Source: a virus
Length of the DNA stretch: 64,000 nucleotides
Direction: 5' to 3' (one strand)
Virus record (IMG/VR): IMGVR_UViG_3300023181_000002
Coordinates: 35,883 to 99,882 of that record
Shown here: one piece after another, positions 1,106 through 57,170 of the stretch
Numbering within the stretch: the stretch's first letter is position 1
How the letters are laid out: each line of letters begins with the position of its first letter
Position numbers and translations under genes: made by a program
Notes under the pieces: generated by a model
What the model saw: only the letters and a program-made list of their open reading frames with translations
What the model was told of the DNA's origin: nothing
Database searches by the model: none

Positions 1106-1276
1106 ATGGATCAGGAAGATTTCAATAGAAAAAGGCGTGCTTTAAAAATGCTGTCTCATTCACTTTTCATTCAGGACACTGAAGGCGAAGAAGCGGCTAT
1201 GAAATTTTTAGAGCAATTTAAAAAAGAGGAAGAATTAAGCGTTCTGAATAAAAATACAAAACCCGATGGCATTTGA
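1106..1276 (+). CDS. hypothetical 56 aa protein (not in ORF track)
   Basis: MDQEDFNRKRRALK...PDGI*, fills the gap and overlaps the next start. Confidence 0.55.
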   Translation: MDQEDFNRKRRALKMLSHSLFIQDTEGEEAAMKFLEQFKKEEELSVLNKNTKPDGI

Positions 1277-1718
1277 ATCCCGCATGAAAATTTCCGATGT
1301 GAAAGTATTTGACATGATCGCAGAGATCATCGAGTGGTATTTTCATAATGCGAAAACACCCGACATCGAGAAGATACTCGCTGCGAGGGATCGCCTGGCG
1401 ACGTTGAGCTATAACCTGGCATCGATCAGCGCTGATCTAAAAGAGCGCTATAACGGACAATACTACATCAGAAAGATCGAAACAGCGAAGTCTAAACAAG
1501 GTTTCATCTCGAAAGGGAAGAACATGTCTCAGAGTGAAACTGAAAGCATCATCTCCTCAGCGGAATTCCTGAAAGGGGAGATTGAAGCGGAAGCGGACAG
1601 CTACAAGGTAGATTTGCTCTTAAAGCAGGTTAATAAGATTTTGGATGCCATGGGTCAACGCATCGCGTTTGCGCGTGCTGAGGAGGTTAATTCGAGAAGG
1701 CAGGGGAACAATATGTGA
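1266..1718 (+). CDS. helical/coiled-coil phage protein
   Basis: 150 aa ORF. Confidence 0.7.
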   Translation: MAFESRMKISDVKVFDMIAEIIEWYFHNAKTPDIEKILAARDRLATLSYNLASISADLKERYNGQYYIRKIETAKSKQGFISKGKNMSQSETESIISSAEFLKGEIEAEADSYKVDLLLKQVNKILDAMGQRIAFARAEEVNSRRQGNNM

Positions 1719-13121: not shown

Positions 13122-13131
13122 AATGTGGTTC

Positions 13132-15892: not shown

Positions 15893-15900
15893 CGTGGTTC

Positions 15901-17964: not shown

Positions 17965-18183
17965 TTATACGTTGTATTTCTCGTTTAAAAGGCATTCTTT
18001 CTGCCTGACTTGTCCTGTATTCCAGTAAGGAAGAAACTCGTGGATGAACATCATCTCGAATAGATCATTTGCGATTTCATCGGAAGCCTTACCCTGCTTT
18101 GCGAGTTGGATATTTTTACAATCCAGTTCGCCTGCCACCTTGATGATCCGTTCTTGCAAATCATTCGCTGAAGTGATTTTCAT
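17965..18183 (-). CDS. putative tail hub protein B
   Basis: Size, Cys and position after hub A as in crAss-like phages. Confidence 0.45.
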   Translation of the reverse strand: MKITSANDLQERIIKVAGELDCKNIQLAKQGKASDEIANDLFEMMFIHEFLPYWNTGQVRQKECLLNEKYNV

Positions 18184-18860
18184 AATTTAATTCCATCGAG
18201 ATAAACTTTAATCTGCTTCACGCTGGAAGCGACACACTCGCAATCACAATTACTACCCACTTCCGCTAATAGCTTTAATTTCGTCCATGCAAACATCAGG
18301 TCACGCATGGCATCCAAACGTTTTTCCTTTGTTTTATGGAAGCTGTAACGGCAATCATCGCCAAGGGTCAACTTGTCAGCGATATCAAGTAGTTTCTTAT
18401 CCTGATAACAGGTACTGATGATACGTTTGATCTTTGTGCCTTCCAATACAAAAGTGTTATCTGTCTCGCCGGCACTGAAAACTTCCATCTTTACAGTGAT
18501 ACACCCTTCAGGGAAGCCTGATAAAAATCCTCCACAGTTAGGATCAAGATCAGGAACATCCGAGCAACCTTCACAATCACAAGGAACACCGCAGTCGCTG
18601 CATCCACTCGAAACAGGCACATAAGGAATATCATAGGCATTGATTACCCATTCACCGTTTGTCTGATTAACAGTTCTCTCGAAAGAGTAATATCCGTTAA
18701 TGCCTAAATCAAGGCTTACCTTTGTCTTTACAATTCTGTCAGCGTCCACATTTAAACCGCCATATCCTCCGGGATAATCTACGCTGTACGGCGATGTCAC
18801 ATCTTTAAATATTAAAGCGTCACACTGCTGCTGCGTAATCTGAAAATCGGGGATAAGCAT
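18180..18860 (-). CDS. putative tail hub protein A
   Basis: D.T..Y.....GGYG N-terminus, Cys-rich, first gene of fibre operon. Confidence 0.55.
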   Translation of the reverse strand: MLIPDFQITQQQCDALIFKDVTSPYSVDYPGGYGGLNVDADRIVKTKVSLDLGINGYYSFERTVNQTNGEWVINAYDIPYVPVSSGCSDCGVPCDCEGCSDVPDLDPNCGGFLSGFPEGCITVKMEVFSAGETDNTFVLEGTKIKRIISTCYQDKKLLDIADKLTLGDDCRYSFHKTKEKRLDAMRDLMFAWTKLKLLAEVGSNCDCECVASSVKQIKVYLDGIKL

Positions 18861-18889
18861 CGTTTAAAGCGGGATTTCTGATTGATTAG

Positions 18890-18928
18890 TGAAAGTACTT
18901 TAATGAGAATTATACAATCGTCTCACAA
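18890..18928 (-). promoter_or_regulatory. putative phage late promoter TTGTGAGACGA-N20-TACTTTCA
   Basis: Same 11-mer and 20-nt spacing as 27225-27263. Confidence 0.6.
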
Positions 18929-19002
18929 AAGTTTTTTCCGACTTTTAAAAGTAGTTTATTCTATTTAGTCCATGCGAGGTAGTGCCGACTTTTCAGTGAC
19001 AC

Positions 19003-20991
19003 TCAATAAGCACGCATAGCCGGACCTAACCTGATCATAGGATAATCAGAAGATTCCTCCCTTTCGCGCTTGCCATTAGAAGGACCTAACTGTATCACGT
19101 AACTCTCTTTTTCGTATTCTTTATTCATGATCGTTACCGCGAGAGACTCTGTCAAGTTAAGCAAATGAAGCACCAAATGGAATGCTGAGGCAACGTCGGT
19201 ATTTCTACGCGTACCCCATTTAATAAGTTCTTCCAAGATTAGAGGCAACGTAATATTCTTGTAGCGGCCTTCCATAAAGTATTTACTTCCAAGGTAAGTA
19301 AGTTCCTGCTTCTCTGTCTGGCTTACTTTGATACCGGGATTACCGTTAATGTAAAACAGACGGTCGCCTGCTTTTTTGTCGCGTAAGAAGTTTGGGAACC
19401 CGTCATGGTTCCACTCATAAAGGGTTTTCTCTACACCGTAAAACAGCATGCCTTTATAAAACTCTTCATAGGCTACCATTAAATCCGGATGATTGCCATA
19501 ATACACGCAGACAGGCATATCTGATTTAATATTCTGTATCGTAGGCTTCCTGTATATAATCATCGCATTACGCGAGTCTTCACCAGTATCCTTGTGATTC
19601 TCGCCTCTGGATTTATATCTATCATCTATGGCTGCTACATGAAGGTTCTTATACGCCTCTGTAGGCATACCTTCCCTGTTTACATACCAGTCTCCATCAA
19701 CACTCTCAACGAATTGCACCTTACCGGTAGGCTTACCATAACCATCGAGTAAATACTCTAACCTGCCTTTGTACCAGTGACTGGCATGATTCATTTTAAG
19801 CCATGCGATATGTTCGTTGATTTGCGCGACATTATAAGCAGACTTTTTATTGTTTGGCAAGAACGCCTCTTCCCATGTAAGCGGGTTTTCGATCAGATCC
19901 TGGTTGTAAGCATCCTGATCACCAACTTTCGATTCACGCGTTTCTTTGATCTGTCTGAGCGCTTTGTCTTCCAAAGACTTTCCAGTCATGTAATCAATAC
20001 AACCAAACAGCACGCGCGTTTTAGGGGTGAAATGTCTTGTCGCATTGTAAGCAGAAGGACTTTCGAAGATTTCCCTATAAGCGGTAGATTTATTGATAAT
20101 CGCATTGGAAGTTCCTCCGATCAGAAACATCCCCCACTGCTCCCCTCCGAGTTTTACAGAAGGTTCATTCTCTGTGATGTAGTTTTTCAAGGAATCCCCC
20201 ACCCAAAGACCAGCTTCTGCCGCGATAGCCAAGTTCACCCGTTTTCCTTTATAAACCCCTGCTTTCGTTTCCTGCCCAATTACATCGAAGCGGCACTGGC
20301 TTACCGGCTGCGCGATCCGGCCAATCTTGTAACCTATCGAGAAAAGATTCTGGTTATCATGAAGCAGATAAATATCATGCACCTTATTACTTCCTACGGG
20401 CTTCTTTCTTTTGAAGATCGGATGAAGATTGATCCATGTATTTTTAAACCAGTCACGCTCGGTATTTACGACTTCATCGTTAGGGTAGGCACACCCCATA
20501 ATCAAATCGTCTTTGAAAACGAAGAAGTACATGCCTACCCCTAAAAGCGTAAATGTGGTCCATGCAATCCCCCTTGGTTTTGCTTCGACATGATTCTTCG
20601 CCATCTTATGCTTCCCGTTAGGAAGTTTCATATAGCGGTTCGCCCATATCTGATTTAATATCTCTTCATCATTATCCCGATAATAAGGATAATCATAATC
20701 GAATGTAGAGCTGTCAGGTTTTTTTAATGGAATCTTGCAGAAGTTGAGATAGAAATAAAGGAACCCATTCAGGTAATGCCCATCAGGAGCTACCCATCCG
20801 AATTGACAGCGCTTGATTTGTTCCTGCCACCACTGATAACCCCAATCGTCTTTGTCGCGCTTGGGCATCGGAGGCACCTTATCCGTTTCATGCAGGGCTA
20901 CAACCGGACGGTATAACACCTGTACAGAATCCGGATGTGTAAATGGATTGCGCTCAAGCTCTTCTATGACGATATCTTCTGCATCTATCAT
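19003..20991 (-). CDS. terL: terminase large subunit
   Basis: W.EQ..RC..G, YFYLNF, KPRGIAWT (Walker A-like), AIAAEAG, GGTS, P.TWEEAF, AAID and TD nuclease motifs of crAss-like TerL. Confidence 0.85.
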   Translation of the reverse strand: MIDAEDIVIEELERNPFTHPDSVQVLYRPVVALHETDKVPPMPKRDKDDWGYQWWQEQIKRCQFGWVAPDGHYLNGFLYFYLNFCKIPLKKPDSSTFDYDYPYYRDNDEEILNQIWANRYMKLPNGKHKMAKNHVEAKPRGIAWTTFTLLGVGMYFFVFKDDLIMGCAYPNDEVVNTERDWFKNTWINLHPIFKRKKPVGSNKVHDIYLLHDNQNLFSIGYKIGRIAQPVSQCRFDVIGQETKAGVYKGKRVNLAIAAEAGLWVGDSLKNYITENEPSVKLGGEQWGMFLIGGTSNAIINKSTAYREIFESPSAYNATRHFTPKTRVLFGCIDYMTGKSLEDKALRQIKETRESKVGDQDAYNQDLIENPLTWEEAFLPNNKKSAYNVAQINEHIAWLKMNHASHWYKGRLEYLLDGYGKPTGKVQFVESVDGDWYVNREGMPTEAYKNLHVAAIDDRYKSRGENHKDTGEDSRNAMIIYRKPTIQNIKSDMPVCVYYGNHPDLMVAYEEFYKGMLFYGVEKTLYEWNHDGFPNFLRDKKAGDRLFYINGNPGIKVSQTEKQELTYLGSKYFMEGRYKNITLPLILEELIKWGTRRNTDVASAFHLVLHLLNLTESLAVTIMNKEYEKESYVIQLGPSNGKREREESSDYPMIRLGPAMRAY

Positions 20992-21275
20992 TAACGCGTC
21001 AATGTACCTGTGATTAATAGATTCTCTACGATACCATTTTCGAAATTCACAATGATGCGTTTGCTGATAGAAGCGGTATCAATTCCTTGAGCCAGGCTTT
21101 CTCCGGTGTAAGTGGTTTGCACTCTGTCGCCTAAATCTGTTGGGGATGTACAATGACAAGCGCCATTCGTACTGCGGATGCGCGGAGCATCTTCTACTTT
21201 AAAGAAATCTACTGTAACAGGCTGTCCCGTCTTAACGGTGCCAAAATTCAGATGCTGGGTGGTGAAATAACTCAT
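20991..21275 (-). CDS. DUF1573-like Ig-fold protein
   Basis: LNFGTV..G..V.V.F, ACHCT, K.I.V, L.ITG. Confidence 0.65.
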   Translation of the reverse strand: MSYFTTQHLNFGTVKTGQPVTVDFFKVEDAPRIRSTNGACHCTSPTDLGDRVQTTYTGESLAQGIDTASISKRIIVNFENGIVENLLITGTLTR

Positions 21276-21284
21276 TTGTGGTTC

Positions 21285-21653
21285 TTATTTATTAGTTTGA
21301 AATTGTTTCCATTCTTTGCGGGACATCATTTTAGGGTAGCACTGCACCAGTCCCTGATCAAGGCACCATTGATCTTTACCTGCTTTACAGGCTTTGTCAG
21401 CGAACATTAAATCAGGTGTTTTACAGCCACAGCATAGACAACTCATATTAGGAGTCGCTACACAGGCTTTCGCAGGAGTTTCTTCTGTACGCCATTTGTA
21501 TTGTTCTACAATATGCCGGCGCATAAAGTATCGGTAATTATGGTAGAGATAAATCCGGACGGTGCCTTGGATGTAATACCATGCATCTAGTGGATCTCGC
21601 CATACGTGCAGTATGTTTTGCTTTACTTTTAGGAATGCTGTTTTTAGTTTCAT
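21285..21653 (-). CDS. Cys-rich (CCGC) conserved phage protein
   Basis: C...CLCCGC.TP.L..ADKAC...CYP.MM..KEW. Confidence 0.65.
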   Translation of the reverse strand: MKLKTAFLKVKQNILHVWRDPLDAWYYIQGTVRIYLYHNYRYFMRRHIVEQYKWRTEETPAKACVATPNMSCLCCGCKTPDLMFADKACKAGKDQWCLDQGLVQCYPKMMSRKEWKQFQTNK

Positions 21654-21667
21654 TTTCAGGTGGGTTA

Positions 21668-21798
21668 TAAAAGCAGGAGAGCCTGCATTTTTAAGTGCAA
21701 GCTCCTACGAAAGTTTCCGAACCACCTAGAAACCTTTTTTCTTAAAGAGCACTCCACCCATCGTGAAGTGCCGTAATTCGGATACTATCGCGTGCTTG
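21668..21798 (-). ncRNA. putative 3'UTR-derived three-hairpin small RNA with terminator-like end
   Basis: Stems 21749-21771, 21710-21736, 21679-21704; each has a G.U pair only on the minus strand; U-run follows. Confidence 0.6.
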
Positions 21799-22965
21799 TT
21801 ATGCTACGCTTTCGTCATTCGCTGAGCAGTAACCTACTACTACTGTGTCGCCACCTACCGCTGTTGGCAAGGTTGCTGATTTAGACGTTACCGTGTAAAG
21901 GGATTTACCATTTACGTAAGAGTGTCTTACCACAGAGATTGTATTGCTGTTCGTATAATCAGTTTGCGCCGTTGTCAAGTTAGCACCAGAACCAGCATCA
22001 GTACGTGTTACGCAATAACCGTAAACCGCGAAATCTGTTGGTGTTGTACCTGTTGTTTTCTTATCAAGAGCAGCGCTGTAAGCAGTCGGGTTAAGAAGAG
22101 CAACAGTTGCTGTATAAGCAGACTGACTATTCGTTACCGCAGGATCAAATACAAGCGTTGTTGTTTGCAATACACGACTGAAATGATTCGGATCGCTTGA
22201 CGGACTCGAAGTACCTCCAAATTGACGGATCGGCTGATCCACATAATGGAATATTTCAATCGCTGACAAACAACGGTCTGTATCGCACTGTCCGAAGATC
22301 GCAGCGCCAAACCAGTCAATCATCTTAAATGCCGTGTAACCTGTTTTAAAATTCGGCACGATCAAATCTGCTTCTGTAAGTCCTTGTGCTGACGCTACAA
22401 AGAAACCTACACCTGCCACTTTCGCTTCAAGCTCCAGATAAGTATTACCTACATTAGAGGCTACAACCGGAGAATCAGGGTCTTTATTGAATTCCGCTAC
22501 CAGCGCATTGATAATCTGCGTACAGCTCTCAATACAACCCGTTTGTACATAAGCTTCTTTAGGGCTTGACCATGTTTGCCATACCGGATACTCGCAAGCA
22601 TCACTCACGCGGACATCAACAGAAATTGTATCATTGAAAAGTGTACAGTCAGTACCAGCCTGGCACATCAAACGCACTTTCTGCTTCAGGTTAGCACCGC
22701 AGCTACGTAGCTTCACACCAGAACCGCCATTGAGAATATTCTCAAAAGGAATCTTATGAAAATTACTTCCCGCAGCAAAGCCATCTCCTGTGCCAATACC
22801 TGTAGTTTTTGCAGTATACAGAGACGTTCCCCCTTTGAATACAATGTTTCCAAACTCCAGCACCGGAACTTCCGTAGTTGCCCCGGAAAAATAAATAGCA
22901 AGCTGAGGAGACTGTCCGCAGTCGCCTTGCCTTCTTCTGTGAACACCAAAAGGTTTGTCTCTCAT
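21799..22965 (-). CDS. putative auxiliary capsid protein
   Basis: Position after MCP/ring; LVAEFN.DP.SPV.A...L.L.AK motif. Confidence 0.6.
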   Translation of the reverse strand: MRDKPFGVHRRRQGDCGQSPQLAIYFSGATTEVPVLEFGNIVFKGGTSLYTAKTTGIGTGDGFAAGSNFHKIPFENILNGGSGVKLRSCGANLKQKVRLMCQAGTDCTLFNDTISVDVRVSDACEYPVWQTWSSPKEAYVQTGCIESCTQIINALVAEFNKDPDSPVVASNVGNTYLELEAKVAGVGFFVASAQGLTEADLIVPNFKTGYTAFKMIDWFGAAIFGQCDTDRCLSAIEIFHYVDQPIRQFGGTSSPSSDPNHFSRVLQTTTLVFDPAVTNSQSAYTATVALLNPTAYSAALDKKTTGTTPTDFAVYGYCVTRTDAGSGANLTTAQTDYTNSNTISVVRHSYVNGKSLYTVTSKSATLPTAVGGDTVVVGYCSANDESVA

Positions 22966-22984
22966 TTTATTTTAATTTATTAAA

Positions 22985-23632
22985 TTATCCATTGTTTTGA
23001 ACTTCTTGTCCCGTAGCCTGCCACTTGTTATAGTCTTCAATGCTAAGGGAATATTTCATTACTACCATATCAATGATGTCGTACTGTTGCGCCTGATCCT
23101 CTTCGGTGAACCCGTTAGGCTCTGTCAGAAGCGCGTAAGGCTTTGGCTTTTTTACGTAATAAACACTCACACCTTTCGGGGTATTCGTACTTAATATGTC
23201 AAAGTATAAGCCGGCATCGTTACGTCTTTCTATGTACCTTGGAAACTCGTCGTCTGGTTGATTAAAAGGATCACTTAAAGATTCTATCCCTTCATCTACT
23301 GTAAACGGCACAATCGGTCTTGTATAGGTTGTAATCTGTGCCCCACACTGAAAATCGAAATCTGCCCAAACACCCAGCACAAACGCAATATTCAAATCAT
23401 CTGTGATATTTACCTGGCGAACATCCCCGAAGTCCTTGTCCCTGATAAAAGCTCTTGCGTCGGAACGCTGAAGCTCTGTCACTTCGAAATCCTTCACTTT
23501 TAACCTCAACCATTCAAGTCTTGATTCTTCGTACATCCAGACAAAAGCCAACTTCTGAATATCAGGGGAGTTAGATTTGTCAAGCTTTTCTGAAGCATAC
23601 CTGAATATTTCAAGGTTGGTTAATTTCGCCAT
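22985..23632 (-). CDS. tail ring (head-tail connector) protein
   Basis: LDK.NSP, DPFN.P, YVKKP motifs of crAss-like ring proteins. Confidence 0.7.
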   Translation of the reverse strand: MAKLTNLEIFRYASEKLDKSNSPDIQKLAFVWMYEESRLEWLRLKVKDFEVTELQRSDARAFIRDKDFGDVRQVNITDDLNIAFVLGVWADFDFQCGAQITTYTRPIVPFTVDEGIESLSDPFNQPDDEFPRYIERRNDAGLYFDILSTNTPKGVSVYYVKKPKPYALLTEPNGFTEEDQAQQYDIIDMVVMKYSLSIEDYNKWQATGQEVQNNG

Positions 23633-24651
23633 TATTTAATCAAGGATTGCTCCTTTAAACCATTGTACAAAGGTTGATTCGATGCGAAGAACTCTTTAAG
23701 TTTCTTCTTCGTGAAACGTTCGTCAGAAATCGTTGGAAGGAAATACTTTGTCATAGGTCCTTTACCTTCTTTCTCAATCAACTGCGCTTCAAGAAACTCA
23801 TCGATCTTAATATCCATCATCGCGTCATCGTCAATCGGAGCTGAATCATCGAGTGGTCTTGCCTCTAAAGGTTTACCTACTTCATTGAACAAGCTCACAA
23901 AGTCAGAATCTTCGAATTTAGGCTCGTAAGCTTCAACCTTTTTCACATACTTCGGATCAATACCGCGTTGCAAATACACTTTAAAATCTGCATCCGAACG
24001 AAGTTGGAAAGCAGCTTCCTCTTGTGTCTTGGCATAGATCGTATCACGGTCTTTGCGAATCTTTCCATCTGTATCTTTAAACACAACACCTTTCTCGATA
24101 GCCACATCCAAAAGTGCCATCAATTCAAAGTCCTGTGTTTCGACGATCATCTCTTCACCGCGCATAAACTTCGCCGGCTCTGTACGTGCCAGGTTATCAA
24201 GCTTCGTAAAGATGGTCTTCGAAGGTAAACCTGCGGCAAGACCAATCAATCGGCGGTATATCTGTGCCAATAATGTTTCATCATTCTTATGCTTACGAAG
24301 ATATTCTTGCACTTTGAACGACTGCTCAGCGAAGTAAAGCTCTTTGTCAACAATCTCCTGTGGATTAACAAGTAAGATGTGCGAAGTGCTTTCAGGATTC
24401 ATCTTGCAGAAAAGCTGCAAGGTCTTGAAGTTATGCGCTTCAATCTTGTTGTCAAGGTTGAACTGGATTGTGTTGTCAATCACTAAATCTACTTCATCTG
24501 TACCGTCCGAGGTAAAGAAACAACGTCTTGGTTCTGCACTGCCGAGACGAGCTGTAAAGCCCGACCCGATGATTTCTTGTCTAAGCACGCCGCCAGCTTC
24601 CTTTCGGAGTCCGTTGACTTGTCTTAAAGAAGCTGATACAATATTTGACAT
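23632..24651 (-). CDS. conserved crAss-like protein downstream of MCP
   Basis: Synteny; FNLDN, ALLDVAIEKGVV. Confidence 0.55.
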   Translation of the reverse strand: MSNIVSASLRQVNGLRKEAGGVLRQEIIGSGFTARLGSAEPRRCFFTSDGTDEVDLVIDNTIQFNLDNKIEAHNFKTLQLFCKMNPESTSHILLVNPQEIVDKELYFAEQSFKVQEYLRKHKNDETLLAQIYRRLIGLAAGLPSKTIFTKLDNLARTEPAKFMRGEEMIVETQDFELMALLDVAIEKGVVFKDTDGKIRKDRDTIYAKTQEEAAFQLRSDADFKVYLQRGIDPKYVKKVEAYEPKFEDSDFVSLFNEVGKPLEARPLDDSAPIDDDAMMDIKIDEFLEAQLIEKEGKGPMTKYFLPTISDERFTKKKLKEFFASNQPLYNGLKEQSLIK

Positions 24652-24680
24652 GATATTTTTATTTGTGGTTCTAAAAAATA

Positions 24681-26249
24681 TTAATCCTGCAAAGTAAGCT
24701 TGATGATACCCATGATATCGATGTAAGGCACACCTTCAAACAACAAGTGATGTTCGATACCATCGACAGTAGATCCGATATTGTAAGTATCTTGGTTGTT
24801 CATCATTTGCTGAAGTGCGGTATCCTGCATGTTCATCAATTGTGTACCGGTAGCGCCGTTGAATTGGCCTGTGATACCAGTTGTTTTACCATACACAAAC
24901 CCACGGTCAATGCCGTTACCGGATTTAGTATAATAAGTGAATGATTTTAAACGGGAACCATCATCTCCACGGCGAACCGGGATAAAGAAAATTTCGCGGC
25001 TACGATCTTTACCTTTGATACCATTGTAGTTGAAAGTCTTATACTCTCCTGTGCTTTGGTAAGCGCCTGTCATGTCATACATGAAAAGATCGCCATGATC
25101 CGTTGTGTATTTATTGATACCAAAACCAATATCTACTTTACCCGAAGCAGGCACATCACGGAACAATGTTACAGGATATTTAGCGGCAGCTCCTTCACGG
25201 ATCGTGTCGCGTAGCCATTGCATACCTCCATCTTCACCTACGGCAAGAATGTCTGCGCCTGGGAATATTTGACGGATTTGCTGCATGATACTATCGATAC
25301 GTCCAAGATTCGAACGGTATGTGCCGCGAACAGGATGACGGTATTGAATGCGTGCCTGATCTAATTGCTGACGGATACCTGCGTAAGAAGGACGGTCCGG
25401 ACGAGCTGTTAAACCTTTATAGCCATTCACTTCAAGCGTCAACGGGTCGAAGTTTGAACGGGAGTCCATAATCTGTCCTTCTACACTCGCCAAAGCTTGA
25501 CGGAAGAAGTTAACAGGAAGACTTGTTCTGAAACTTGTAGACGTTGAACCATCCATGGCTCTGTCAACACCGAATGTGAACACCTCATCTGACATAGCAG
25601 AACCTGTTTCAGGATAGCCATAACGAGTGATCATTGTCGGGTTAACAAATTCATTGCGCTTCATCGGGTTAAGCGCTAAACTGTTTGAAGTTTGAGAGCC
25701 TTCACCTTTCGTGTTACCAAATCCCCAGTTTACCGGCTTGCCGATCTGAAGAAGGCTACCTGATGCAGTTTCTCCTACTTGCCCTACAAGTACGAAAGTT
25801 ACATCTACATAACCCTGATTGGTGTTACGACGGGAAACAACGCGAAGAATCGTTCTGTCATCCCATAATTTTACTTGTTCATCCTCGTCAAGCACACCGA
25901 AATCAAGTGATACGTCAAAAGGAATCCCTGCTACCAATACGTCCGGCACTTGGCTGTTGTCAACCACGTAAGACAATTGGCGCGTTTCTGTTTCTTCGCG
26001 GATACGGATAAATTCTGAGCCAATGGTAGAAGTCTCAACTGTAAAGCCTTTGTCTTTCGCAGTAAGATCTACACCAGCGCCGAATAAATTGGTAAACACA
26101 AGATACGGCGATTTCCAGTTGGTGTAACTGATGATCTTGGTTAGGAACTCTTGAGGGTAGCGCGAAAGAAGATCATCGCGCAGGGCAAGATCGTTAACCA
26201 TTCTGCGGCGACTGCCTTTATTAACACTTACTCTAAGTTGGTCTGCCAT
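24681..26249 (-). CDS. major capsid protein
   Basis: 522 aa after scaffold; GEGS...N...ITRY..TGSA, AGIRQQL, DG.E.H.L.E.......I.L. Confidence 0.8.
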   Translation of the reverse strand: MADQLRVSVNKGSRRRMVNDLALRDDLLSRYPQEFLTKIISYTNWKSPYLVFTNLFGAGVDLTAKDKGFTVETSTIGSEFIRIREETETRQLSYVVDNSQVPDVLVAGIPFDVSLDFGVLDEDEQVKLWDDRTILRVVSRRNTNQGYVDVTFVLVGQVGETASGSLLQIGKPVNWGFGNTKGEGSQTSNSLALNPMKRNEFVNPTMITRYGYPETGSAMSDEVFTFGVDRAMDGSTSTSFRTSLPVNFFRQALASVEGQIMDSRSNFDPLTLEVNGYKGLTARPDRPSYAGIRQQLDQARIQYRHPVRGTYRSNLGRIDSIMQQIRQIFPGADILAVGEDGGMQWLRDTIREGAAAKYPVTLFRDVPASGKVDIGFGINKYTTDHGDLFMYDMTGAYQSTGEYKTFNYNGIKGKDRSREIFFIPVRRGDDGSRLKSFTYYTKSGNGIDRGFVYGKTTGITGQFNGATGTQLMNMQDTALQQMMNNQDTYNIGSTVDGIEHHLLFEGVPYIDIMGIIKLTLQD

Positions 26250-26254
26250 TGTTT

Positions 26255-27193
26255 TTAGATTTTACTTTTAAACTTTGAATTTTTCCCCGTTTCAAATCCG
26301 CGCTTATCTACGCCTCTCAAAAGACTTGCAAATAATTTCTTGTCCAAAGCGATTGCCTTGACAATTTCGTACTCGGCACGTTCCTCCGGCGTTTTTGGTT
26401 GAGGAGGGTTTGCCATATTTCTTGTTACAACCTGCTTTAGATAAGACTTCATGTCTTCCGGGATTTCAACGCCCATTGGACTGAATGTATCTAAGGTCTG
26501 ATGTAAAACATTTCTGTATTGCTTTTCTGCTTGAAGGGAAGTATCTGCGTGGCTTCTGGCATCGCTAAGAATCTTTTCATATTCATTCTTATAATGACCT
26601 CTAAAAGAGTTCGCCATGCGCTTGCCGTCTTCTGTGAGCTTATTCTCTTCATCGAACAGTTCCGCGATGCGCTCATCATACATTCTCCGTGAGAAGGTAA
26701 TTGGGTCACTATCCATGCGTTCTCTCAGTACTTTACGGATCAGCTCTGCATCAGGCATAGAATTGTTATCCAACGCTTGCTGTGCTTCCGCGAAACGAGG
26801 ATTGCTGCGAAGAAACTCATTGCCTTTCTCCAAGCGGAACGACTCATCGTAAACCGCTTCAGGTGAATTCAGGTGAGAATAGTTCTCTCCAAATTTCTGT
26901 ACTGCAAGCTGAGAGTAATTCGTTTTATCTTCTTCTACTTTAAAGCCTCCTGTGATCAGATCTTTATAAGGTGTCCAGTACTCAGGTAAATCATCAGGAT
27001 CATTACCTTCATTCACCGGAGCAGTATCTACACCTTTAGGAACAGAGGTATTCACCTTGTTCTCTAAACTCTTAATAAGATCATCATCAAATCCCTGCGA
27101 TTTCCCCGCTATAAAAGGCTCAGCCTGTTTGGAGAATCCCGCTTCGGAATTAAATTTCTCAAAAGCATCAACTGCTACTGACGTTCCTGTCAT
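26255..27193 (-). CDS. putative scaffolding protein
   Basis: Acidic helical protein immediately upstream of MCP. Confidence 0.6.
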   Translation of the reverse strand: MTGTSVAVDAFEKFNSEAGFSKQAEPFIAGKSQGFDDDLIKSLENKVNTSVPKGVDTAPVNEGNDPDDLPEYWTPYKDLITGGFKVEEDKTNYSQLAVQKFGENYSHLNSPEAVYDESFRLEKGNEFLRSNPRFAEAQQALDNNSMPDAELIRKVLRERMDSDPITFSRRMYDERIAELFDEENKLTEDGKRMANSFRGHYKNEYEKILSDARSHADTSLQAEKQYRNVLHQTLDTFSPMGVEIPEDMKSYLKQVVTRNMANPPQPKTPEERAEYEIVKAIALDKKLFASLLRGVDKRGFETGKNSKFKSKI

Positions 27194-27224
27194 GGTATTT
27201 TATTGTTTTCGTGGTTCTTGGAAT

Positions 27225-27263
27225 CAAATTTATATAGAGCGCAATAGATAATTCGTCTCACAA
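27225..27263 (-). promoter_or_regulatory. putative phage late promoter TTGTGAGACGA-N20-TAAATTTG
   Basis: Bacteroidota -7 element preceded by repeated 11-mer; upstream of scaffold/MCP operon. Confidence 0.65.
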
Positions 27264-27320
27264 CAATTCTTTTGGAATTGATTTTTTATTATATTTACAG
27301 ACGTAAAAATCCACTATAAA

Positions 27321-27830
27321 ATGTCATTAGAAGAAATCTACAAAATCGTAAATGACTTTAAAGAAGAGCAGAGATTAAGATGGCTCTCAAATGATAACAC
27401 CATCGAAGATTTGTTCTACGTATTGCTATCTGAAAGGGTTGACAAGAAATCTATACAAGAAGTTGTAGAGCTTGCTATCATTGAACACTTCGATGTGAAT
27501 CGTATTGATTTTCACCGTGTGAAGATGGGTAAATATGGAGATGCTGAATCTATACCAGATAATATTAGACGTGTCGCTCATGCAAGAAAATGGCACGTTA
27601 GTATCTTAATGAATATGCTCCATGTATCAAATTTCACAATGAAGAGTAATTACGGTAATTGGTATCATCATAGAATAGCATTCGATCACAGGCCGGCTTA
27701 TATGGGAGCTTTAATGCCTTGTTCTGTCGAAGATCAATCTAACAGAGATCACCTGCTTTCTATCGGTAACATTATAAAAAGAATGTGCAATGAAGAGGGG
27801 CTTTTAGATGAAAGATTGGATTTAATTTAA
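27321..27830 (+). CDS. hypothetical protein, weak DnaA domain-IV-like HTH
   Basis: IIEHFDV...RRVAHARK....L pattern. Confidence 0.4.
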   Translation: MSLEEIYKIVNDFKEEQRLRWLSNDNTIEDLFYVLLSERVDKKSIQEVVELAIIEHFDVNRIDFHRVKMGKYGDAESIPDNIRRVAHARKWHVSILMNMLHVSNFTMKSNYGNWYHHRIAFDHRPAYMGALMPCSVEDQSNRDHLLSIGNIIKRMCNEEGLLDERLDLI

Positions 27831-27848
27831 ACTTTAAGAAAATACACA

Positions 27849-28310
27849 ATGAATGATCATTTGAAATTTCTACAGAACATTATCAACGAAGAAATTAAAG
27901 AAGTTAAGTTATGGCCGAATCCTCAAAAAGATTTAATGGTAGAAGAGCTTCAATCTGCTGATGTATTAATCAATGAATGCACAGACACGAAAGAGTTTAA
28001 GTTCCCCTTTTACGCAGCTCTATGTTTTATGCGTAGAGGTATGAAAATTCAAGTAGATGAGTGGGATGGATTTATCCGGCTGGAAGGGAATTTACTCCCT
28101 ACAGGGAAAGGAGATAAAGTAACCTTAGCAATATCCGGAGGTATGCTTGATATTCGAGATCAAGATGGTAATAAGATAGATTATTTTGACAAAAGAGCTG
28201 AGGTAGTAAAAACTTCCCTTGCAAGAAAAAATGAAAATAGTAATTGCTTTTCAATTTACAGCCTAAATAATCGACTTGAGTTTGTGGACGGCGAATATAT
28301 CAAAGCCTAA
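27849..28310 (+). CDS. hypothetical protein, weak DUF2829-like motif
   Basis: FYAAL.FMRRG.KI....WDG. Confidence 0.35.
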   Translation: MNDHLKFLQNIINEEIKEVKLWPNPQKDLMVEELQSADVLINECTDTKEFKFPFYAALCFMRRGMKIQVDEWDGFIRLEGNLLPTGKGDKVTLAISGGMLDIRDQDGNKIDYFDKRAEVVKTSLARKNENSNCFSIYSLNNRLEFVDGEYIKA

Positions 28311-31700: not shown

Positions 31701-34700
31701 CTCTGATTTAGGGACTGTATAGATTCGTTTCGTCTTATCACCACGTATTTTATAAGAATCACCTTCTTCACCTTCAATCGTGCCACGCATAGGAGTTCCT
31801 GCCTGATCAAAGGTTATTTGTTGACCAATCGCTTCTGAAGGCTTAATACTTGGTTTATCCCATGAAATAGCCGCCTGTTCTTGTTTATCCAGTTCCTGTA
31901 TAATTTCAGGAGCCAACTCTTCCTCGACAGGCGTTTCAATAGCCTGCTCTTGTGAAGGATTCAGTATCGCATTGATCTCTTCGCTACTTATGCCTGAAAT
32001 TTCTTTTCCTCCCAGTATATCAGCAGCAACTTTTGAAGCGAACTGATCCATCTCCATATTGCTAAGTTGTTCAGGTGTTAACGTTTCAATAGCAGGAACA
32101 TTAGCAAAATATTCTTTAATACGTCCAAATACTTCTTTCACCCAATTCTTGAAATCAGCCTTACGGGTATTACCCACAAAAGATTCTCCATTGTTACCGA
32201 TTGCTCTGGCAAGGGCTTCCTCTTGCTGTGCCTGCTCTGGTAGTTTACTATAATTAGGATCACGCTTAACAGATTTTAAATAGCCGCTATTCGATAGTAA
32301 AGCAATTCCCCTGTCATATAATGCCTGATCGTTTTGGCGTGCCCATAGCGTCCATATATGCCCAAACTCATGAAGAGGCGTATTCGGATCAGATTCTATC
32401 GTTTGCGGATTTAAATATACTTGTCCTTCACGGATAAATCCTGTCGGGGCTTTCGCTGAGATAGGCAACCCCGCAGCATTCATAAACTCTTTCAGGTTCA
32501 CCGGGATAACAACATCCACATTAGGGAACGCTTTAGAAATTTGCTTGATAACATTTCCTACGATACCTGGCGCTACTACTGGTAGCTCTGATACCGTTTC
32601 TGCTGCCGGCGCTGTACTCTGGTCGCCTCCGCTGCTGTCTCCGGCAGTCTCGTTAATGATAGGGTCAAGTTTTCTGAGGACTTCCTGTAACTGTCCGTCA
32701 ACTGATCCAATCTGTTCACTGACGCTGTCAAGTTGTCCAATAAGCTCTGTGATAGATTCGTCTGTTTCTTCGCTTGGGATAACCTCCTCTGCGACTTGTT
32801 CAACAGATCCAGCGACAGGCTGTACCGGTTCTGTGTTGTTTTGAGCAGATTCGAGAGCGCTTGCGAGTTGTGCCTGCGCAGCGTATTGTTGTTTGACTGA
32901 ACGTGATTTTCGGGTATTGCGGCGAGTTCCTTCGCTGACAGGATTTTCATTGGTGCCTTGTGTTATAGGTTGTATATTCTCTGCATTTAAAATATCTTGA
33001 TCAGTTATCTCGTTGGCAAGTGCCGTACCTCCAAATCCTTTCTCTGCTGTGTTCAACTCTATCAAAGGATCGATATAAAACAAATTCCCATCTTTATCAA
33101 TCAAGGCATTATCCCTTTCATTGATATCCGACAAAAGAAAGTCTCCGAGAGCATAGTGCTCTTTACCAACAGACTCGAATCCAAGCTTTTTCATGCTATC
33201 CTGAATATCCTTCAAGGAAGCGGAAAACTTAGCCTGGACTAAAGGCTGTTTAACAATCGCCGAAAATTGCCCCCTTTTATTTCTTCCGAATCCCTCAAGC
33301 TCGTACTTCGTCTCAGGGAACAAATAATTGTGCATGGCAATCCTGTCAAAGAAAGTCAGGATATCTTTGTGCGAAGCCAGGTTGTTTACCTTTAAAAGAG
33401 ACTTTCTATCAGGTGTATAATACACAGAGGACTCAAAGCCCTTACCGTAATATTCTCCCAATTCCTTGTCAGGATTTTCATACCAGATGCCTTCTTCTTT
33501 AGCATACGCTTCTAGGTCGCGCTCTTGCTTGAGTCTACTTTCGTTTTGAGTGCTTTCATCTGTGCTGTCAAAGCCTCTTGCGATAAGGGATGCTTCAACA
33601 TTTCGGATACCGCCTTCTGCGCGGCCAGACTCGATTTCCGGTGATAATCGTTGAGGTAACGATTGTCCTTCGATGCTTGCTTTTGCATAATCTTTTATAT
33701 TTTGTATACTAACAGCACTTTCTGTGTTGGTGTCAGAATTTTGTGCTGTTTCTATCGGGGCATTATTTTCTATAGGAGCAGCTTCTTGAGCTTGATTTAC
33801 AGGCGCTTCCTCTATAGGTGCTACTACTGGTGGCTCTGGTCTTAATTCTGGTGCCTGCTGATAGGATTTCTCACTGGCAAGCGTATTAAGATCATTCTCT
33901 ATCGCGGCCACAACATCATCGATCTGAGCCAGAGTATAAGCTCTGCCAGAAGCCTTTCTTTTGTTTTGCCACAATTTACGTGTAGCCGTTAACTCAGAAA
34001 TTGCTTTGTCAATTCTTTTCACAGGTACAGTTGTATCACCGCCTTCTATATCCAATATCGTATCGATACTGTCATTGGAAGGAGTATATACATCAGCAAC
34101 TGCTGCCGGAATATTCAGCTCTTTTTGTTTCGCTAAAATAGTTTGCTCGAAAGGGTCAACTCTTTTTCCGTTCACACTCGGCAAAAATCCTACTACATTC
34201 TGAAAGTCTTCTTCCGAAAGCACAGGTACGGATGGTGTTGTTGATTTTTGATCCTGAGCGATAATTTGAGTGTAAAAATCATATGCCTTTGTCACGCGGT
34301 CCGAGATCGCATCATACACAGAAGGATTTGTATTCAAAGTCTGTGCCGCCTGCGCAGTAACCCCTATAAGATCAGCCGCATCCTGACGGTAATCAAAAGG
34401 CGATGTTGCCGCCGCAGAAGCATGCGCTGTCTGGTTATTAGCAATATTAGCCGCAGCCTGCGCATAGTTCTGATAATTACTGATCGGCACGTACTGCTTC
34501 TCAAAGCGCTGTATTGGTTTGTATTTACCTTTATCAAGTTGTGAAACGATATCAGTTGCTGGCTGTACAGGAATTGTGTTTACCTGGCGAATAGCCGTTG
34601 ATTCATTATCTCTGACAATAAGCGAACCATCAGGCAATACTGTTTCCGTATCTGGAGAAAAATCCTGGTCAGGGAATAGGTTACTATTCAAAAATGATCT

Positions 34701-36656
34701 ACCCATTCCCTTACGCGTATCATCCTGACTGGTGATTTCTGGTAATGCCTGCTGAAAGAGTGCTTCTGTTTGTTGCGACTGATTGTTAATATCCTCCATC
34801 GCAAGATATTCTCCTGTCTGTGGATTCTTATCACCTAGCTGCTGTTCGATTGTTGCTTTCTGCGCTTCCAGCTTTGTAGCGGCAAGAGAATTGCCTTCAG
34901 ACTTTGCCTGATCAGCTTGCGCCTGTAATTGATCTACTTGCTGTTTCGCTCCTTCGAACTGTGTTTTCGCTGCCTGGATATTGTTACGCGTATCTGTGAT
35001 GTTAAACATCGATAACCGGTCCTGCGCGTCAAGATTCGGCATATCTTTAAACTCGTAGAAAGAGTCGTATAGCAGATCCGCCTTCTTCGCTACATTCTCA
35101 AGCTTTTGCTGATCAAGCTGCCCATTCGCATCATTAAACTGCCCATTCTGTGTTGCCACATCAAGGAGCGATTTAACGCGTGCATTAGTTTTAAGCTCTT
35201 CAATAGTCGCATTGGGATTGTTTTTAAGCTGCTCTTTGATGTCAGCATTCACAAAGGCACCCAATGTTTCGTGCATCTCTTTGGAGTTTGGCGCGAACGA
35301 GCCTATCGTCCCTCCAAGGAAACCTCCTAAAAGAGCACCATAAGTAGCATCTTCTAAAGTTTTATACGCATCCGTTTGGAATTCACCATTACCGGGAGAA
35401 GTTTGAGCGTCTCCCATTAAGTTGTTGTAGCCTCGCTGTGCGCCATAACTCGCCCACTCCTGAGCAAATTCTGTTGCTGCTTCAGGAAGCGCTCCTTTAG
35501 CGAACTTTCTTCCAAGATTTCCGACTTGCTTTTTAAGTACAGCCATTGAGCCTTGATTAGAAAGCTCGGCGACAGACTCTTTAAAGGTTTTTTCTACTAC
35601 GTCATTGAATAGTTCTTTCGTGATGCCTTTTGAAGCGAGATCAGAAATAGCCTGAGCGCTCTTATCTTTTACAACACGCTTAATAACTTCTTTACCGGCA
35701 TTGCCTTTCAAAGCATTTAATATACCTGCTTCACCCGCAAGTTCCAATGCTGATTGAACCAGGCTTGTACCCGTAGCATATAAAGTAGCTTCAGTACCTT
35801 TTAAACCTGCATCATGCGCATCATCCTGATTGCCACCATACATCTGCGCGAAAGACATTAAAAAAGAAGCCTTCTTTGTAGGAGCTAAAATTGAAACAAG
35901 GCTACCTACGCCTGAGCCTACACCCGCAAGCCATTTGTTTGCATCCGCAGCCTGGCTTAAATCTATCTCAATATGACCATCCGTGCCAGTTTTAAAACTG
36001 ACAGGATTTTGCTTTGTCGTTTCGTCTATCTCTACCCCAGCTTTTGAAAAGCCTTTGTCAATACTCTTTTTAATACCATCATACTGTTGACGGTAAATTT
36101 GAGCATCGGCAATATCTTTCGAGCTTGCCCAAGGCAATTTTGCCTTTAAGTCGAGAGATAATTGATTGGTGTCATTTAAGAAATCTGCCGTTCCTTCCGC
36201 AAGTCCTAGTACTGAATTCCACACAGAACCCATTAAAGCAGTCGTACCGCTTACCCGCTGTACAGGAGGCTTATTAGGTTGATCGATTTGTTGTACCTGC
36301 GGGGCAGCACCCGTTGCAGGTGTCACATCTGGAGAAGCAATATTCTGAGCACGTTGCTCTCTTCGGGATTGAACCTCTGACTGGCGTGCCGCTTTAGCAC
36401 TCGCTGCATTTTCTAAAAGCTTTGTATAACGTGAAGTTTGTCCGATGGTATCAAAAGCAGTAAAAGCCTGCGTAATGGCTTTCTCTTTCGCTTCACCTCC
36501 CTGTGCGATATACCCGTTCAATTGAGACTGCCACGCAATCGGATCGCGTCCGCTATCAACAAGCGCCTGCCTGTAAGAGTCAGGAAGCGTAACAGATTTA
36601 ATATCTGCAAAATAATCCAATGGCTTAACTTCGGTGGTCGGCTGCTGTTTTGCCAT
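28770..36656 (-). CDS. large ejected polyvalent protein (kinase + zincin metallopeptidase domains)
   Basis: EAATEFAQE/GALLGG cargo region; kinase GKGFESSVY..K..HNYLFPET.Y..QP..D..N..IDP (~33050-33500); GF..G.VYLN..TPLHEFGH.W..EEALA (~32200-32440). Confidence 0.8.
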   Translation of the reverse strand: MAKQQPTTEVKPLDYFADIKSVTLPDSYRQALVDSGRDPIAWQSQLNGYIAQGGEAKEKAITQAFTAFDTIGQTSRYTKLLENAASAKAARQSEVQSRREQRAQNIASPDVTPATGAAPQVQQIDQPNKPPVQRVSGTTALMGSVWNSVLGLAEGTADFLNDTNQLSLDLKAKLPWASSKDIADAQIYRQQYDGIKKSIDKGFSKAGVEIDETTKQNPVSFKTGTDGHIEIDLSQAADANKWLAGVGSGVGSLVSILAPTKKASFLMSFAQMYGGNQDDAHDAGLKGTEATLYATGTSLVQSALELAGEAGILNALKGNAGKEVIKRVVKDKSAQAISDLASKGITKELFNDVVEKTFKESVAELSNQGSMAVLKKQVGNLGRKFAKGALPEAATEFAQEWASYGAQRGYNNLMGDAQTSPGNGEFQTDAYKTLEDATYGALLGGFLGGTIGSFAPNSKEMHETLGAFVNADIKEQLKNNPNATIEELKTNARVKSLLDVATQNGQFNDANGQLDQQKLENVAKKADLLYDSFYEFKDMPNLDAQDRLSMFNITDTRNNIQAAKTQFEGAKQQVDQLQAQADQAKSEGNSLAATKLEAQKATIEQQLGDKNPQTGEYLAMEDINNQSQQTEALFQQALPEITSQDDTRKGMGRSFLNSNLFPDQDFSPDTETVLPDGSLIVRDNESTAIRQVNTIPVQPATDIVSQLDKGKYKPIQRFEKQYVPISNYQNYAQAAANIANNQTAHASAAATSPFDYRQDAADLIGVTAQAAQTLNTNPSVYDAISDRVTKAYDFYTQIIAQDQKSTTPSVPVLSEEDFQNVVGFLPSVNGKRVDPFEQTILAKQKELNIPAAVADVYTPSNDSIDTILDIEGGDTTVPVKRIDKAISELTATRKLWQNKRKASGRAYTLAQIDDVVAAIENDLNTLASEKSYQQAPELRPEPPVVAPIEEAPVNQAQEAAPIENNAPIETAQNSDTNTESAVSIQNIKDYAKASIEGQSLPQRLSPEIESGRAEGGIRNVEASLIARGFDSTDESTQNESRLKQERDLEAYAKEEGIWYENPDKELGEYYGKGFESSVYYTPDRKSLLKVNNLASHKDILTFFDRIAMHNYLFPETKYELEGFGRNKRGQFSAIVKQPLVQAKFSASLKDIQDSMKKLGFESVGKEHYALGDFLLSDINERDNALIDKDGNLFYIDPLIELNTAEKGFGGTALANEITDQDILNAENIQPITQGTNENPVSEGTRRNTRKSRSVKQQYAAQAQLASALESAQNNTEPVQPVAGSVEQVAEEVIPSEETDESITELIGQLDSVSEQIGSVDGQLQEVLRKLDPIINETAGDSSGGDQSTAPAAETVSELPVVAPGIVGNVIKQISKAFPNVDVVIPVNLKEFMNAAGLPISAKAPTGFIREGQVYLNPQTIESDPNTPLHEFGHIWTLWARQNDQALYDRGIALLSNSGYLKSVKRDPNYSKLPEQAQQEEALARAIGNNGESFVGNTRKADFKNWVKEVFGRIKEYFANVPAIETLTPEQLSNMEMDQFASKVAADILGGKEISGISSEEINAILNPSQEQAIETPVEEELAPEIIQELDKQEQAAISWDKPSIKPSEAIGQQITFDQAGTPMRGTIEGEEGDSYKIRGDKTKRIYTVPKSEINTNILFSFGAPAPGEQIGTHQELQDKAKVELESAGVFGVLASDLTGAQKTFIANTQKKYGWKYLGASEVNGVKTDENWSRDISKENDSYFLPGQNNEMIIMPLQGKKGAPNRIVKGIQESADFLEKQRVDGNAAYKVNHWLIQSSFKRLNNLETLVQGIDGFDRVLKSVIRDVKREASNVRNRALNIMGRGYEPARRDLGPYSTHRGSRTIDTVEKLPVQMIQWDRATQKSVVRNVLLPLGTIANLVATHQSQRSMGPEYTVRKVKDSAGTEYTEDHTSLVVDSFYDVDPDDPKLFFNDKETVGSVYKGVHFKKDVAMEADAKGDLQLLKTAQQYGLFTQDEMDRLEDFVTNSGPADFREGFKKIKNTFNDAKVRELLNKENEAINPGKPFKVIPDYSPVQSVKGISAQDKVNSFSPDLEDSRQLQERTARPDAVYAEDILDSFDSYKESVGHILGSTKLVHNLKSLQNAVTSDYDGENKGEITEILNDTIKNLQSYRQQQFESSKGQDSIKPLVTLMVKYTANTFRSNIGISTKQLGTMASALGLGYIKNKNLFSADVLGPLLKMSAGGSTIDRTAGGTLIETTGEGFKTALGTDTTEAAYIKEILGQDITDPAEKEKHEERYATVIQRLVYGQNQYTDTQGIGDLKFTSKGKAWAKQLYNKIDSFNEEYGMANIRRLDRAVIIAYYLAAKKEVAEDHSSLTPEQQADLIASKVTETLYLTNQMSDPADLTMTQRNPNFATRLVTMYSGQTQKLWNQLAGSAIEYYKYKDKVTPEEKAILLSRLKGSLVSNAIINPLWMASTNVAVGLFRAALNGDDDKDKNYWRDKFGFDYARYALGLAPGFASELLQTIISNIDNEPWADGILEVPGADTIDQLLKTAGETIQLINQWDGQTEKEVDKTIYDWINNTSKLVGTSGLAPKTWINPLVKRLNEKPTAKGLKEEDITLESPEGDENQYLEENGGEEEEVPEYLYD

Positions 36657-43900: not shown

Positions 43901-43911
43901 ATATGTGGTTC

Positions 43912-50520: not shown

Positions 50521-50532
50521 AAGTGGTTCTTT

Positions 50533-57149: not shown

Positions 57150-57170
57150 CTACGAAAGTTTTCGAACCAC
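57150..57170 (+). repeat. 21-nt element 20/21 identical to 21705-21725
   Basis: CTACGAAAGTTTTCGAACCAC vs CTACGAAAGTTTCCGAACCAC. Confidence 0.9.

Follow-up and report, generated by a model that had tools for sequence, protein, structure and literature searches.

A Conserved Structured RNA at the 3′ End of a crAss-like Phage Capsid-Module Operon Carries the Exact Antisense of a Motif at the Phage's Own Start Codons

Introduction

Bacterial small RNAs can be derived from the 3′ untranslated region (UTR) of a protein-coding transcript, and CpxQ, SroC and DapZ are the type examples of this class. Structured RNA segments between genes can also act on the transcript itself, as do the R sites of phage T7, which are intercistronic hairpins processed by RNase III. 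Bacteroidota hosts initiate translation without guidance by Shine-Dalgarno pairing, and to our knowledge almost nothing is known about how crAss-like and other Bacteroidota phages control translation. In the phages P1 and P7, the c4 antisense RNA is cut from a longer transcript by RNase P and uses two loops against one target operon, and its segments pair with phage mRNA near the ribosome-binding region, thereby blocking translation. The setting of c4 is P1 immunity (PMC8546580). In Bacteroides thetaiotaomicron, small RNAs of the GibS type are structured and carry a conserved single-stranded seed, which pairs with initiation regions without use of a Shine-Dalgarno sequence (PMC7366714).

The 3′UTR-derived small RNAs, c4 and the Bacteroides small RNAs are relatives in kind, and none of them in sequence, of the element which is the focus of this report. 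The element lies at the 3′ end of the capsid-module operon of a crAss-like phage and contains a short invariant block, which is complementary to a motif found at many start codons of the same phage.

Genomic Setting and Relatives

The DNA analyzed here (the window) comprises 64,000 nt, namely bases 35883-99882 of the 99,882-nt virus record IMGVR_UViG_3300023181_000002; the whole record is referred to as G000, and its ends carry direct terminal repeats. The large terminase shows about 23% identity to its counterparts in crAss-like phages, among them Azobacteroides phage ProJPt-Bp1 and the cr4_1 and cr118_1 types, and the 122-aa gene adjoining the element has homologues only in phages of Flavobacterium psychrophilum. 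Because of this terminase kinship and these homologues, the host of this crAss-like phage is likely to belong to the Bacteroidota.

On the minus strand, genes of 312 aa (with the box TAAATTTG at its head), 522, 339, 215 and 388 aa are followed by a 145-nt gap (21654-21798) and then by genes of 122 aa, 94 aa and the large terminase. The gap separates the stop codon of the 388-aa gene (TAA, 21801-21799) from the ATG of the 122-aa gene (21653), and both of these flanking genes are encoded on the minus strand. A first-pass annotation of this DNA had labeled the 388-aa gene an auxiliary capsid gene. A weak Atlas lead to the crAss_AuxCP cluster (0.85) is what this label retains; the protein matches nothing in Pfam or PHROGs, and its single-sequence AlphaFold model (pLDDT 31) is unusable.

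Two relatives were found, the complete 96-kb genome G001 (IMGVR_UViG_3300023096_000001) and the 4.8-kb fragment L002, and the three-homologue comparison throughout this report comprises the window, G001 and L002, leaving aside the further homologous proteins P0001, P0002 and P0003. Searches of viral contigs with the 388-aa protein, the large terminase (TerL), P0003 and DNA patterns of the element yielded G001 and L002 only, and neither alignment of TerL against metagenome contigs nor blastn and tblastn against cultured phages added to these. In genome contigs, the element pattern gave 20 matches, about the number expected by chance, all of them in coding-like contexts and without the hairpin. 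Flavobacterium phages of the FpV4 type possess a homologue of the 122-aa gene in a different context, and the element is absent from them. At four-fold degenerate sites of the flanking genes, the window is 34-41% identical to G001 and 41-47% identical to L002; silent sites are close to saturation among the homologues.

A Conserved Structured RNA

The features of the element, all on the minus strand, are the following.

21654-21801, minus strand: whole element, from the TAA ending the 388-aa gene up to the nucleotide preceding the next ATG; conserved structured RNA
21773-21791, minus strand: 5′ block GCGAUAGUAUCCGAAUUAC, a motif-like "decoy", predicted to pair with the antisense block as helix P1
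21771-21749, minus strand: hairpin 1, GCACUUCAC/GUGGAGUGC, 9 bp, pentaloop GAUGG (AGUGG in G001)
21728-21742, minus strand: small hairpin AGAAA/UUUCU of the favored fold, overlapping the 5′ arm of hairpin 2
21736-21710, minus strand: hairpin 2, AAGGUUUC/GAAACUUU, loop UAGGUGGUUCG, part of the alternative fold
21717-21726, minus strand: invariant antisense block GGUGGUUCGG ("seed"), identical in all three homologues
Within 21708-21673, minus strand: hairpin 3, GAGCUUGCA/UGCAGGCUC, then UUUU at 21672-21669
21669-21708, minus strand: hairpin 3 with its U-run, intrinsic-terminator-like end of the capsid-module transcript (terminator-like-site scan)
21658-21663, minus strand: CCACCU, part of the 122-aa gene's leader; complement of AGGUGG in the block

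The three minus-strand hairpins and the U-run, which the first-pass annotation had described, are all present within 21654-21798, and so are the strand-specific G.U pairs that it had noted in every stem; such pairs occur in all three stems and in every helix of the minus-strand RNA. The predicted energy of this RNA is -54.5 kcal/mol, compared with -33.8 +/- 3.5 kcal/mol in shuffled sequences (z = -5.9), whereas the plus-strand RNA of the same gap has a z of -2.7.

In the three-hairpin model, 100% of the 87 cells are paired over the three homologues and 11 pairs are changed on both sides, a number which none of 500 shuffles reaches and which slid registers fall far below. The two-sided changes affect 6 of the 9 pairs of hairpin 1 and 4 of the 12 pairs of hairpin 3, with pairing kept in 100% of the cells of each. 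The 8 pairs of hairpin 2 are likewise 100% paired, one of them reading U-A, U.G and C-G over the homologues, and the stretch of about 40 nt around this hairpin is about 90% identical between the window and G001. A covariance model finds a single strong copy in each of the window, G001 and L002 (159, 135 and 163 bits) at the same syntenic place; a second match in the window (1235-1343, 16.9 bits, E 0.047) was judged to be noise. The element is thus a genuine sense-strand structured RNA of the capsid-module operon, which is under selection.

Several other identities were considered for the element. Rfam 15 gives no match at gathering score in the window and, at a cut-off of E up to 10, only chance-level matches (E above 1) on the element itself. 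A tRNA-like nature, to which the resemblance of GGUUCG to a T-arm might point, was rejected, as ARAGORN detects no tRNA or tmRNA in the window and no CCACC strand follows the GGUGG-UUCG segment. A packaging site was likewise rejected, since the terminal repeats sit at the record ends, far from the element. A micro-ORF starting at the AUG of the hairpin-1 loop (MGGVLFKKKGF in the window, MGWALFKKKGF in L002) was discarded because both AUG and frame are lost in G001, and the conservation of hairpin 1 is therefore at the nucleotide level.

The hairpin-1 pentaloop (21758-21762, minus strand) reads GAUGG in the window and in L002 and AGUGG in G001, though 6 of the 9 stem pairs change. In the window and L002, its AUG opens an 11-codon frame, which ends at a UAG just before the invariant block.

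Terminator and Promoter Context

Located between the capsid-module and terminase genes, hairpin 3 is the best terminator-like site in 18000-28000. Its core (21705-21678) consists of 10 pairs, including 5 G-C pairs, with CCUGCUUUUA behind it; a distance of 5 nt separates the main stem from the U-run, which has a length of only 4 U. With a G+C-rich stem-loop and a U-run on the transcribed strand, hairpin 3 has the sequence features of an intrinsic terminator.

A host-type -7 box (TAnnTTTG/A) is found neither within the element nor up to 300 nt upstream of it in any of the three homologues. An independent host-type promoter for the element was rejected for this reason, and the absence of the box fits a 3′UTR-derived RNA better than an independent gene. 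The location of the element is also that of a 3′UTR-derived small RNA, as it extends from the end of the 388-aa coding sequence to the shared hairpin 3 and no host-type promoter was found for it.

At the head of the capsid-module operon (window 27211-27232, minus strand), a host-type -7 box TAAATTTG stands 7 nt before a GAACCAC, and the same arrangement is found in G001. Judging from these positions, the capsid-module transcript may carry the motif at its start and the antisense block at its end, about 5.5 kb further on.

The GAACCAC Motif at Start Codons

The window contains 32 copies of GAACCAY compared with 12.9 expected, a count which none of 100 shuffles reaches. Among non-A/T-rich 7-mers, GAACCAC ranks first in the 25 nt preceding start codons in both genomes (9 versus 0.38 expected in G000, 9 versus 0.46 in G001). 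The occurrence of the motif before at least 10 start codons, as claimed for GAACCAY in the first-pass annotation, is confirmed: 12 of the 20 GAACCAC copies in G000 (99.9 kb) are sense-oriented and located 1-17 nt ahead of an ATG. In G001, this holds for 12-13 of 24 copies, and over both genomes the distance to the ATG ranges from 0 to 19 nt, with a bimodal distribution (0-5 and 13-19 nt). Six orthologous genes keep the motif identical amid altered spacing and flanks. The start-proximal enrichment together with this retention demonstrates that the GAACCAC motif is under selection. The sites in the window which are referred to here are the following.

21278-21284, minus strand: motif site TAA-GAACCAC-AA-ATG before the 94-aa gene (motif scan)
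13125-13131, 15894-15900, 24665-24671, 27211-27217, 43905-43911, 50523-50529, 50999-51005: other sense sites before ATGs (motif scan)

Motif-bearing genes include that of a 380-aa HNH-endonuclease-like protein (42758-43900, minus strand; phrog_374, 1.6e-65) and a 95-aa gene (50697-50984, minus strand) with a weak link to nucleotide pyrophosphohydrolases (phrog_419, phrog_4159), so the motif-marked set is functionally mixed. In G001 (34684-35877, minus strand; loci L006/L011), three consecutive early genes are each preceded by an upstream repeat of about 30 nt, TTGGGATAWTTGAT..AATCCGAACCACC, which ends at the ATG. This repeat unit may be a cassette of early promoter and motif.

The fullest form of the motif, CCGAACCACC, is found before the ATGs at G000 35388, G001 92561 and G001 34970. 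Most of the G000 sites read AGAACCACA, and their flanks are A-GAACCAC-A and not C-GAACCAC-C, so that they match the antisense block over only 7 nt; 9 of the 12 read AGAACCAC and just 2 of the 12 continue with C. As the flanks of the G000 sites are not biased toward complementarity, the motif apparently has a separate reader. A host-wide signal was rejected as an explanation of the motif, since a survey of 301 Bacteroidota genomes showed no excess of the 12-mer CGAACCACCATG over its reversed control.

Complementarity and Predicted Trans Partners

The block GGUGGUUCGG is the exact complement of CCGAACCACC, and it is invariant among three homologues whose four-fold sites in this region are 34-47% identical. 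Its core GUGGUUC is complementary to 10 start regions in G000 and 11 in G001, and the element holds the only intergenic antisense copy of the motif. When all 7-mers of the element were scanned, GUGGUUC was the only non-A/T-rich one with many complementary start regions, its competitors being A/T-rich. At the level of sequence, the element thus contains what is expected of a 3′UTR-derived small RNA, i.e., a conserved seed complementary to several target start regions. The duplex with a 7-nt GAACCAC amounts to just -10.7 kcal/mol. The match between AGGUGG and CCACCU upstream of the ATG at 21653, which was part of the first-pass annotation, is present (21663-21658) and lacks conservation in L002, where nothing similar precedes the 122-aa gene; G001 has AGAACCAC there.

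A far longer complementarity links the element to an early operon.

57150-57170, plus strand: partner CUACGAAAGUUUUCGAACCAC, directly after the stop of the 76-aa gene; 21 of 21 positions pair, one of them G.U (repeat family D5)

This site forms the best predicted non-self duplex in the genome (-35.3 kcal/mol, compared with a genome mean of -12.7 and sd of 3.4), and the gap around it is unstructured (z about 0). Site and element constitute the sole pair of 21-mers in the window in which no more than one position is mismatched. In Markov simulations, such pairs average 0.2 per window, and the 21-nt pair is therefore significant only because this particular block is involved. In G001, the orthologous site CCCGAACCAC again follows the 76-aa orthologue, and UCCGAACCACCAUGAGCC at the start of the 93-aa orthologue pairs over 18 nt with one mismatch to the 5′ arm and block of G001; G-G and C-C mismatches interrupt the second extended site of G001. 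The strongest predicted partners thus lie in the same orthologous early-gene neighborhood in both phages. The block region has only one variable position; at the site that follows the 76-aa gene, the base facing it has changed along with it, giving A:U in the window and G:C in G001, which is suggestive as a single event and not proof of pairing.

Between the partner site and the next ATG (57257), an A/U-rich hairpin CUCUUAAAGG..CUUUGAAAGAG followed by U7 is located at window 57205-57245 (plus strand). Given this hairpin and U-run, the partner site may be part of a 3′UTR rather than a leader; a consensus terminator scan gave the hairpin no terminator score. Elsewhere in the window, a 140-nt direct repeat of 70% identity (43714-43853 and 48723-48862, plus strand) is found 5 kb apart amid large minus-strand genes.

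Two Competing Folds

The first-pass annotation had placed the exact complement of the motif in the middle loop of the structure. The complementarity of GUGGUUC and GAACCAC stands, but in the favored fold of all three homologues the block is paired. In the minimum free energy folds of the three and in the RNAalifold consensus, the 3′ block GUGGUUCGGAAACUUUCG pairs with the 5′ block GCGAUAGUAUCCGAAUUAC in helix P1, which encloses hairpin 1 and the small hairpin AGAAA/UUUCU, and the terminator hairpin follows. P1 is paired in 93% of the cells over the three homologues and has 4 changes on one side only, all compatible with pairing; in the small hairpin, both partners of two pairs differ between the window and G001 (AGAAA/UUUCU versus AAGAA/UUCUU). 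Hairpin 2 and the pair of P1 and small hairpin are mutually exclusive. Comparative support is split between both folds, and three homologues are insufficient to choose between them by covariation.

In the full-length RNA, the block is consequently predicted to be masked and not single-stranded, the calculated cost of opening the 10-nt block being 15.4 (window), 12.3 (L002) and 7.2 kcal/mol (G001). When the RNA is truncated 5′ of hairpin 2, this hairpin forms and closes further into its "loop", and opening the block still costs 4.8-6.7 kcal/mol. In sequence, the 5′ block (CCGAAUUAC; UCGAACAAU in G001) resembles a decayed version of the target word. In alignment A3, the identity of the window to G001 is 90% over the antisense block with its 3′ flank and about 53% over the 5′ partner block, which argues for a constraint on the 3′ block beyond its role in P1.

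Proposed Mechanism

We consider the structured 3′ end of the capsid-module transcript a candidate trans antisense regulator of motif-bearing start regions, which would probably act after processing, and we assign this reading a probability of about 0.4. The transcript would likely start at the host-type promoter near 27230 and end at hairpin 3. The block GGUGGUUCGG would base-pair in trans with the phage's own start-proximal (A/C)GAACCAC(C), the 21-bp early-operon site at 57150-57170 being the tightest predicted partner, and pairing could alter the translation or stability of target mRNAs as late capsid mRNA builds up. We infer a discrete RNA, its pairing in trans and the direction of its effect, of which repression is more likely because every site lies within the ribosome footprint. 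In the primary transcript, the block would be locked by the internal decoy through P1. Activity would therefore need either processing, which removes the 5′ block and leaves hairpin 2 and the terminator, or strand displacement by better-matched targets. The thermodynamics of trans pairing are marginal in our calculations unless processing or a chaperone assists.

A trans role is favored by a block that is more invariant than its structure requires and exactly complementary to the selected motif, by the syntenic partners and by the 3′UTR position, for which no separate promoter was found; it is weakened by the masking of the block, the mostly 7-nt matches in G000 and the marginal thermodynamics. 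The seed-pairing regulator derived from a 3′UTR, as proposed in the first-pass annotation, retains its conserved RNA, shared terminator and antisense block, but its seed is predicted to be masked in the full-length RNA, and most of its sites in G000 match over only 7 nt.

Alternative Explanations

The main rival to a trans regulator is that the element functions purely in cis as an end-of-operon module, in which the branched P1 helix and the terminator set the ratio of capsid to packaging mRNA and protect the upstream mRNA. It may also be a site for double-strand-specific processing, with the likeness to the start motif being incidental or owed to a motif-like 5′ block which needs to stay paired. 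Such a module would account for the closed fold with its buried block in all three homologues, the two double compensations in the small hairpin of this fold, the position of the best terminator-like site between capsid-module and terminase genes, and the single copy per genome at a fixed syntenic place. It leaves unexplained why the 3′ block is invariant while its partner drifts (90% versus about 53%), why it contains an exact 10-nt complement of the most selected non-A/T-rich start word (we estimate a chance of about 0.002 for the 7-mer in a conserved block of 40 nt) and why the two phages have their best trans partners in syntenic positions. On balance, we regard a purely cis function as somewhat less probable than the trans reading and as the most serious of the alternatives.

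Alternatively, the motif could be read by another factor, i.e., a phage or host RNA-binding protein or a part of the ribosome, and the element would then be a competitor or sink. As a modulator, the RNA would either hide the sites late through its antisense block or titrate the factor through its motif-like 5′ block, and its possession of both motif-like and anti-motif segments is consistent with this. The G000 site consensus AGAACCACA, which departs from the complement of the block at both flanks, and the bimodal spacing (0-5 and 13-19 nt) also suggest a reader with its own geometry. No candidate for such a factor was identified, however; the four Bacteroidota 16S rRNAs contain no perfect complement of the motif, and CGAACCACCATG is not enriched against its reversed control in the 301 Bacteroidota genomes. 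We therefore consider this explanation improbable.

A signal at the DNA level appears very improbable. GAACCAC(C) would then be a promoter of a phage polymerase, and the plus-strand copy at 21719-21725 would drive an antisense transcript into the capsid-module gene. Short motifs do serve as promoters for some non-canonical phage RNA polymerases, and the 21-mer repeat is direct on the plus strand. The early promoters of the crAss-like phage phi14:2 are unidentified (10.1101/2020.03.07.982082). Against such a promoter, no leader could fit into spacings of 0-2 nt to the ATG, and the position of the block inside a sense-strand structure with G.U pairs and compensatory changes would have to be a coincidence.

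The 3′ tail of the host 16S rRNA was the alternative ligand named in the first-pass annotation, and GGAACACCUCCUUU is indeed the tail in one of four Bacteroidota 16S genes. The tails of the four (L046-L049) are GGATCACCTCCTTT, GGAATACCTCCTTT, GGAACACCTCCTTT and GGAACATCTCATTT, the last with an altered anti-Shine-Dalgarno core, and their readings vary (GGAUCACCUCCUUU, GGAAUACC.., GGAACACC.., GGAACAUCUCAUUU). A Shine-Dalgarno-type role of the motif itself was rejected, since its exact complement (GUGGUUC) is found in none of these four genes and the motif resembles the GGAACACCUCCUUU tail rather than complementing it. That AGGUGGUUCGG of the block would pair imperfectly with CUGGAACACCU, just 5′ of the sequestered anti-Shine-Dalgarno, and thereby alter ribosome behavior, is likewise very improbable: one of the four 16S ends in GGCUGGAACACCUCCUUU and allows 10 of 11 pairs by hand, with one G.A mismatch and two wobbles, and the tail is functionally special in Bacteroidia (PMC7797042, PMC9976891), but it is bound by protein (PMC7797042), it varies among Bacteroidota (GGAUCACC, GGAAUACC, GGAACAUC), of which the host is a probable member, the block matches the phage motif perfectly and the tail imperfectly, and the block is masked in the favored fold.

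Implications

The start-region motif and the conserved RNA with its exact antisense form a concrete and testable pair of parts. If pairing is real, the element would be the first phage-encoded riboregulator in Bacteroidota with a multi-gene regulon of the phage's own genes, as well as an example of a seed masked by an internal decoy. A more far-reaching and rather unlikely reading is that this phage clade runs a private translational code, comprising a start word, an RNA reader or antagonist, a decoy-silenced block and a late switch. In that case, (A/C)GAACCAC(C) would be the label of a regulon comprising at least a dozen genes, both early and late, in a host whose ribosomes disregard Shine-Dalgarno signals; the phage itself would supply the trans reader or antagonist of this word as the abundant 3′ end of its capsid-module mRNA, and processing would unmask the block, thus providing a built-in switch of translation late in infection. 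Even if trans pairing should not be real, the element represents a new structured RNA family, and the GAACCAC motif still needs a reader.

Comparison With Known Systems

Like 3′UTR-derived small RNAs of the CpxQ, SroC and DapZ type, the element is located at the 3′ end of a protein-coding transcript, shares its terminator and has no promoter of its own that we could find, and its short block is conserved more than the rest and complementary to several initiation regions. It differs from this type in being encoded by a lytic crAss-like phage with the phage's own genes as candidate targets, and these targets share one motif. Furthermore, its seed is predicted to be masked by a decoy.

With c4, the element shares its phage origin and a short segment complementary to phage mRNA near a start region, for which pairing is predicted, and in the window and G001 one complementary site is located just downstream on the element's own transcript. 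Unlike c4, with its two loops, one operon and RNase P, the element has one block and a dozen or more dispersed sites, and the two are related neither in sequence nor through Rfam. The proposed host phylum is that of GibS, which in contrast is chromosomal and has its own promoter (PMC7366714), and the element has no family match and a seed which is not predicted to be single-stranded at full length. Finally, similar to the T7 R sites and to late-operon terminators, the element combines a stable irregular helix with a terminator hairpin at the passage from a structural gene to the downstream genes, and as in the R sites its structure is kept while the stem sequence drifts. An invariant block tied to a genome-wide start-codon motif, which R sites and terminators do not possess, distinguishes the element from them.
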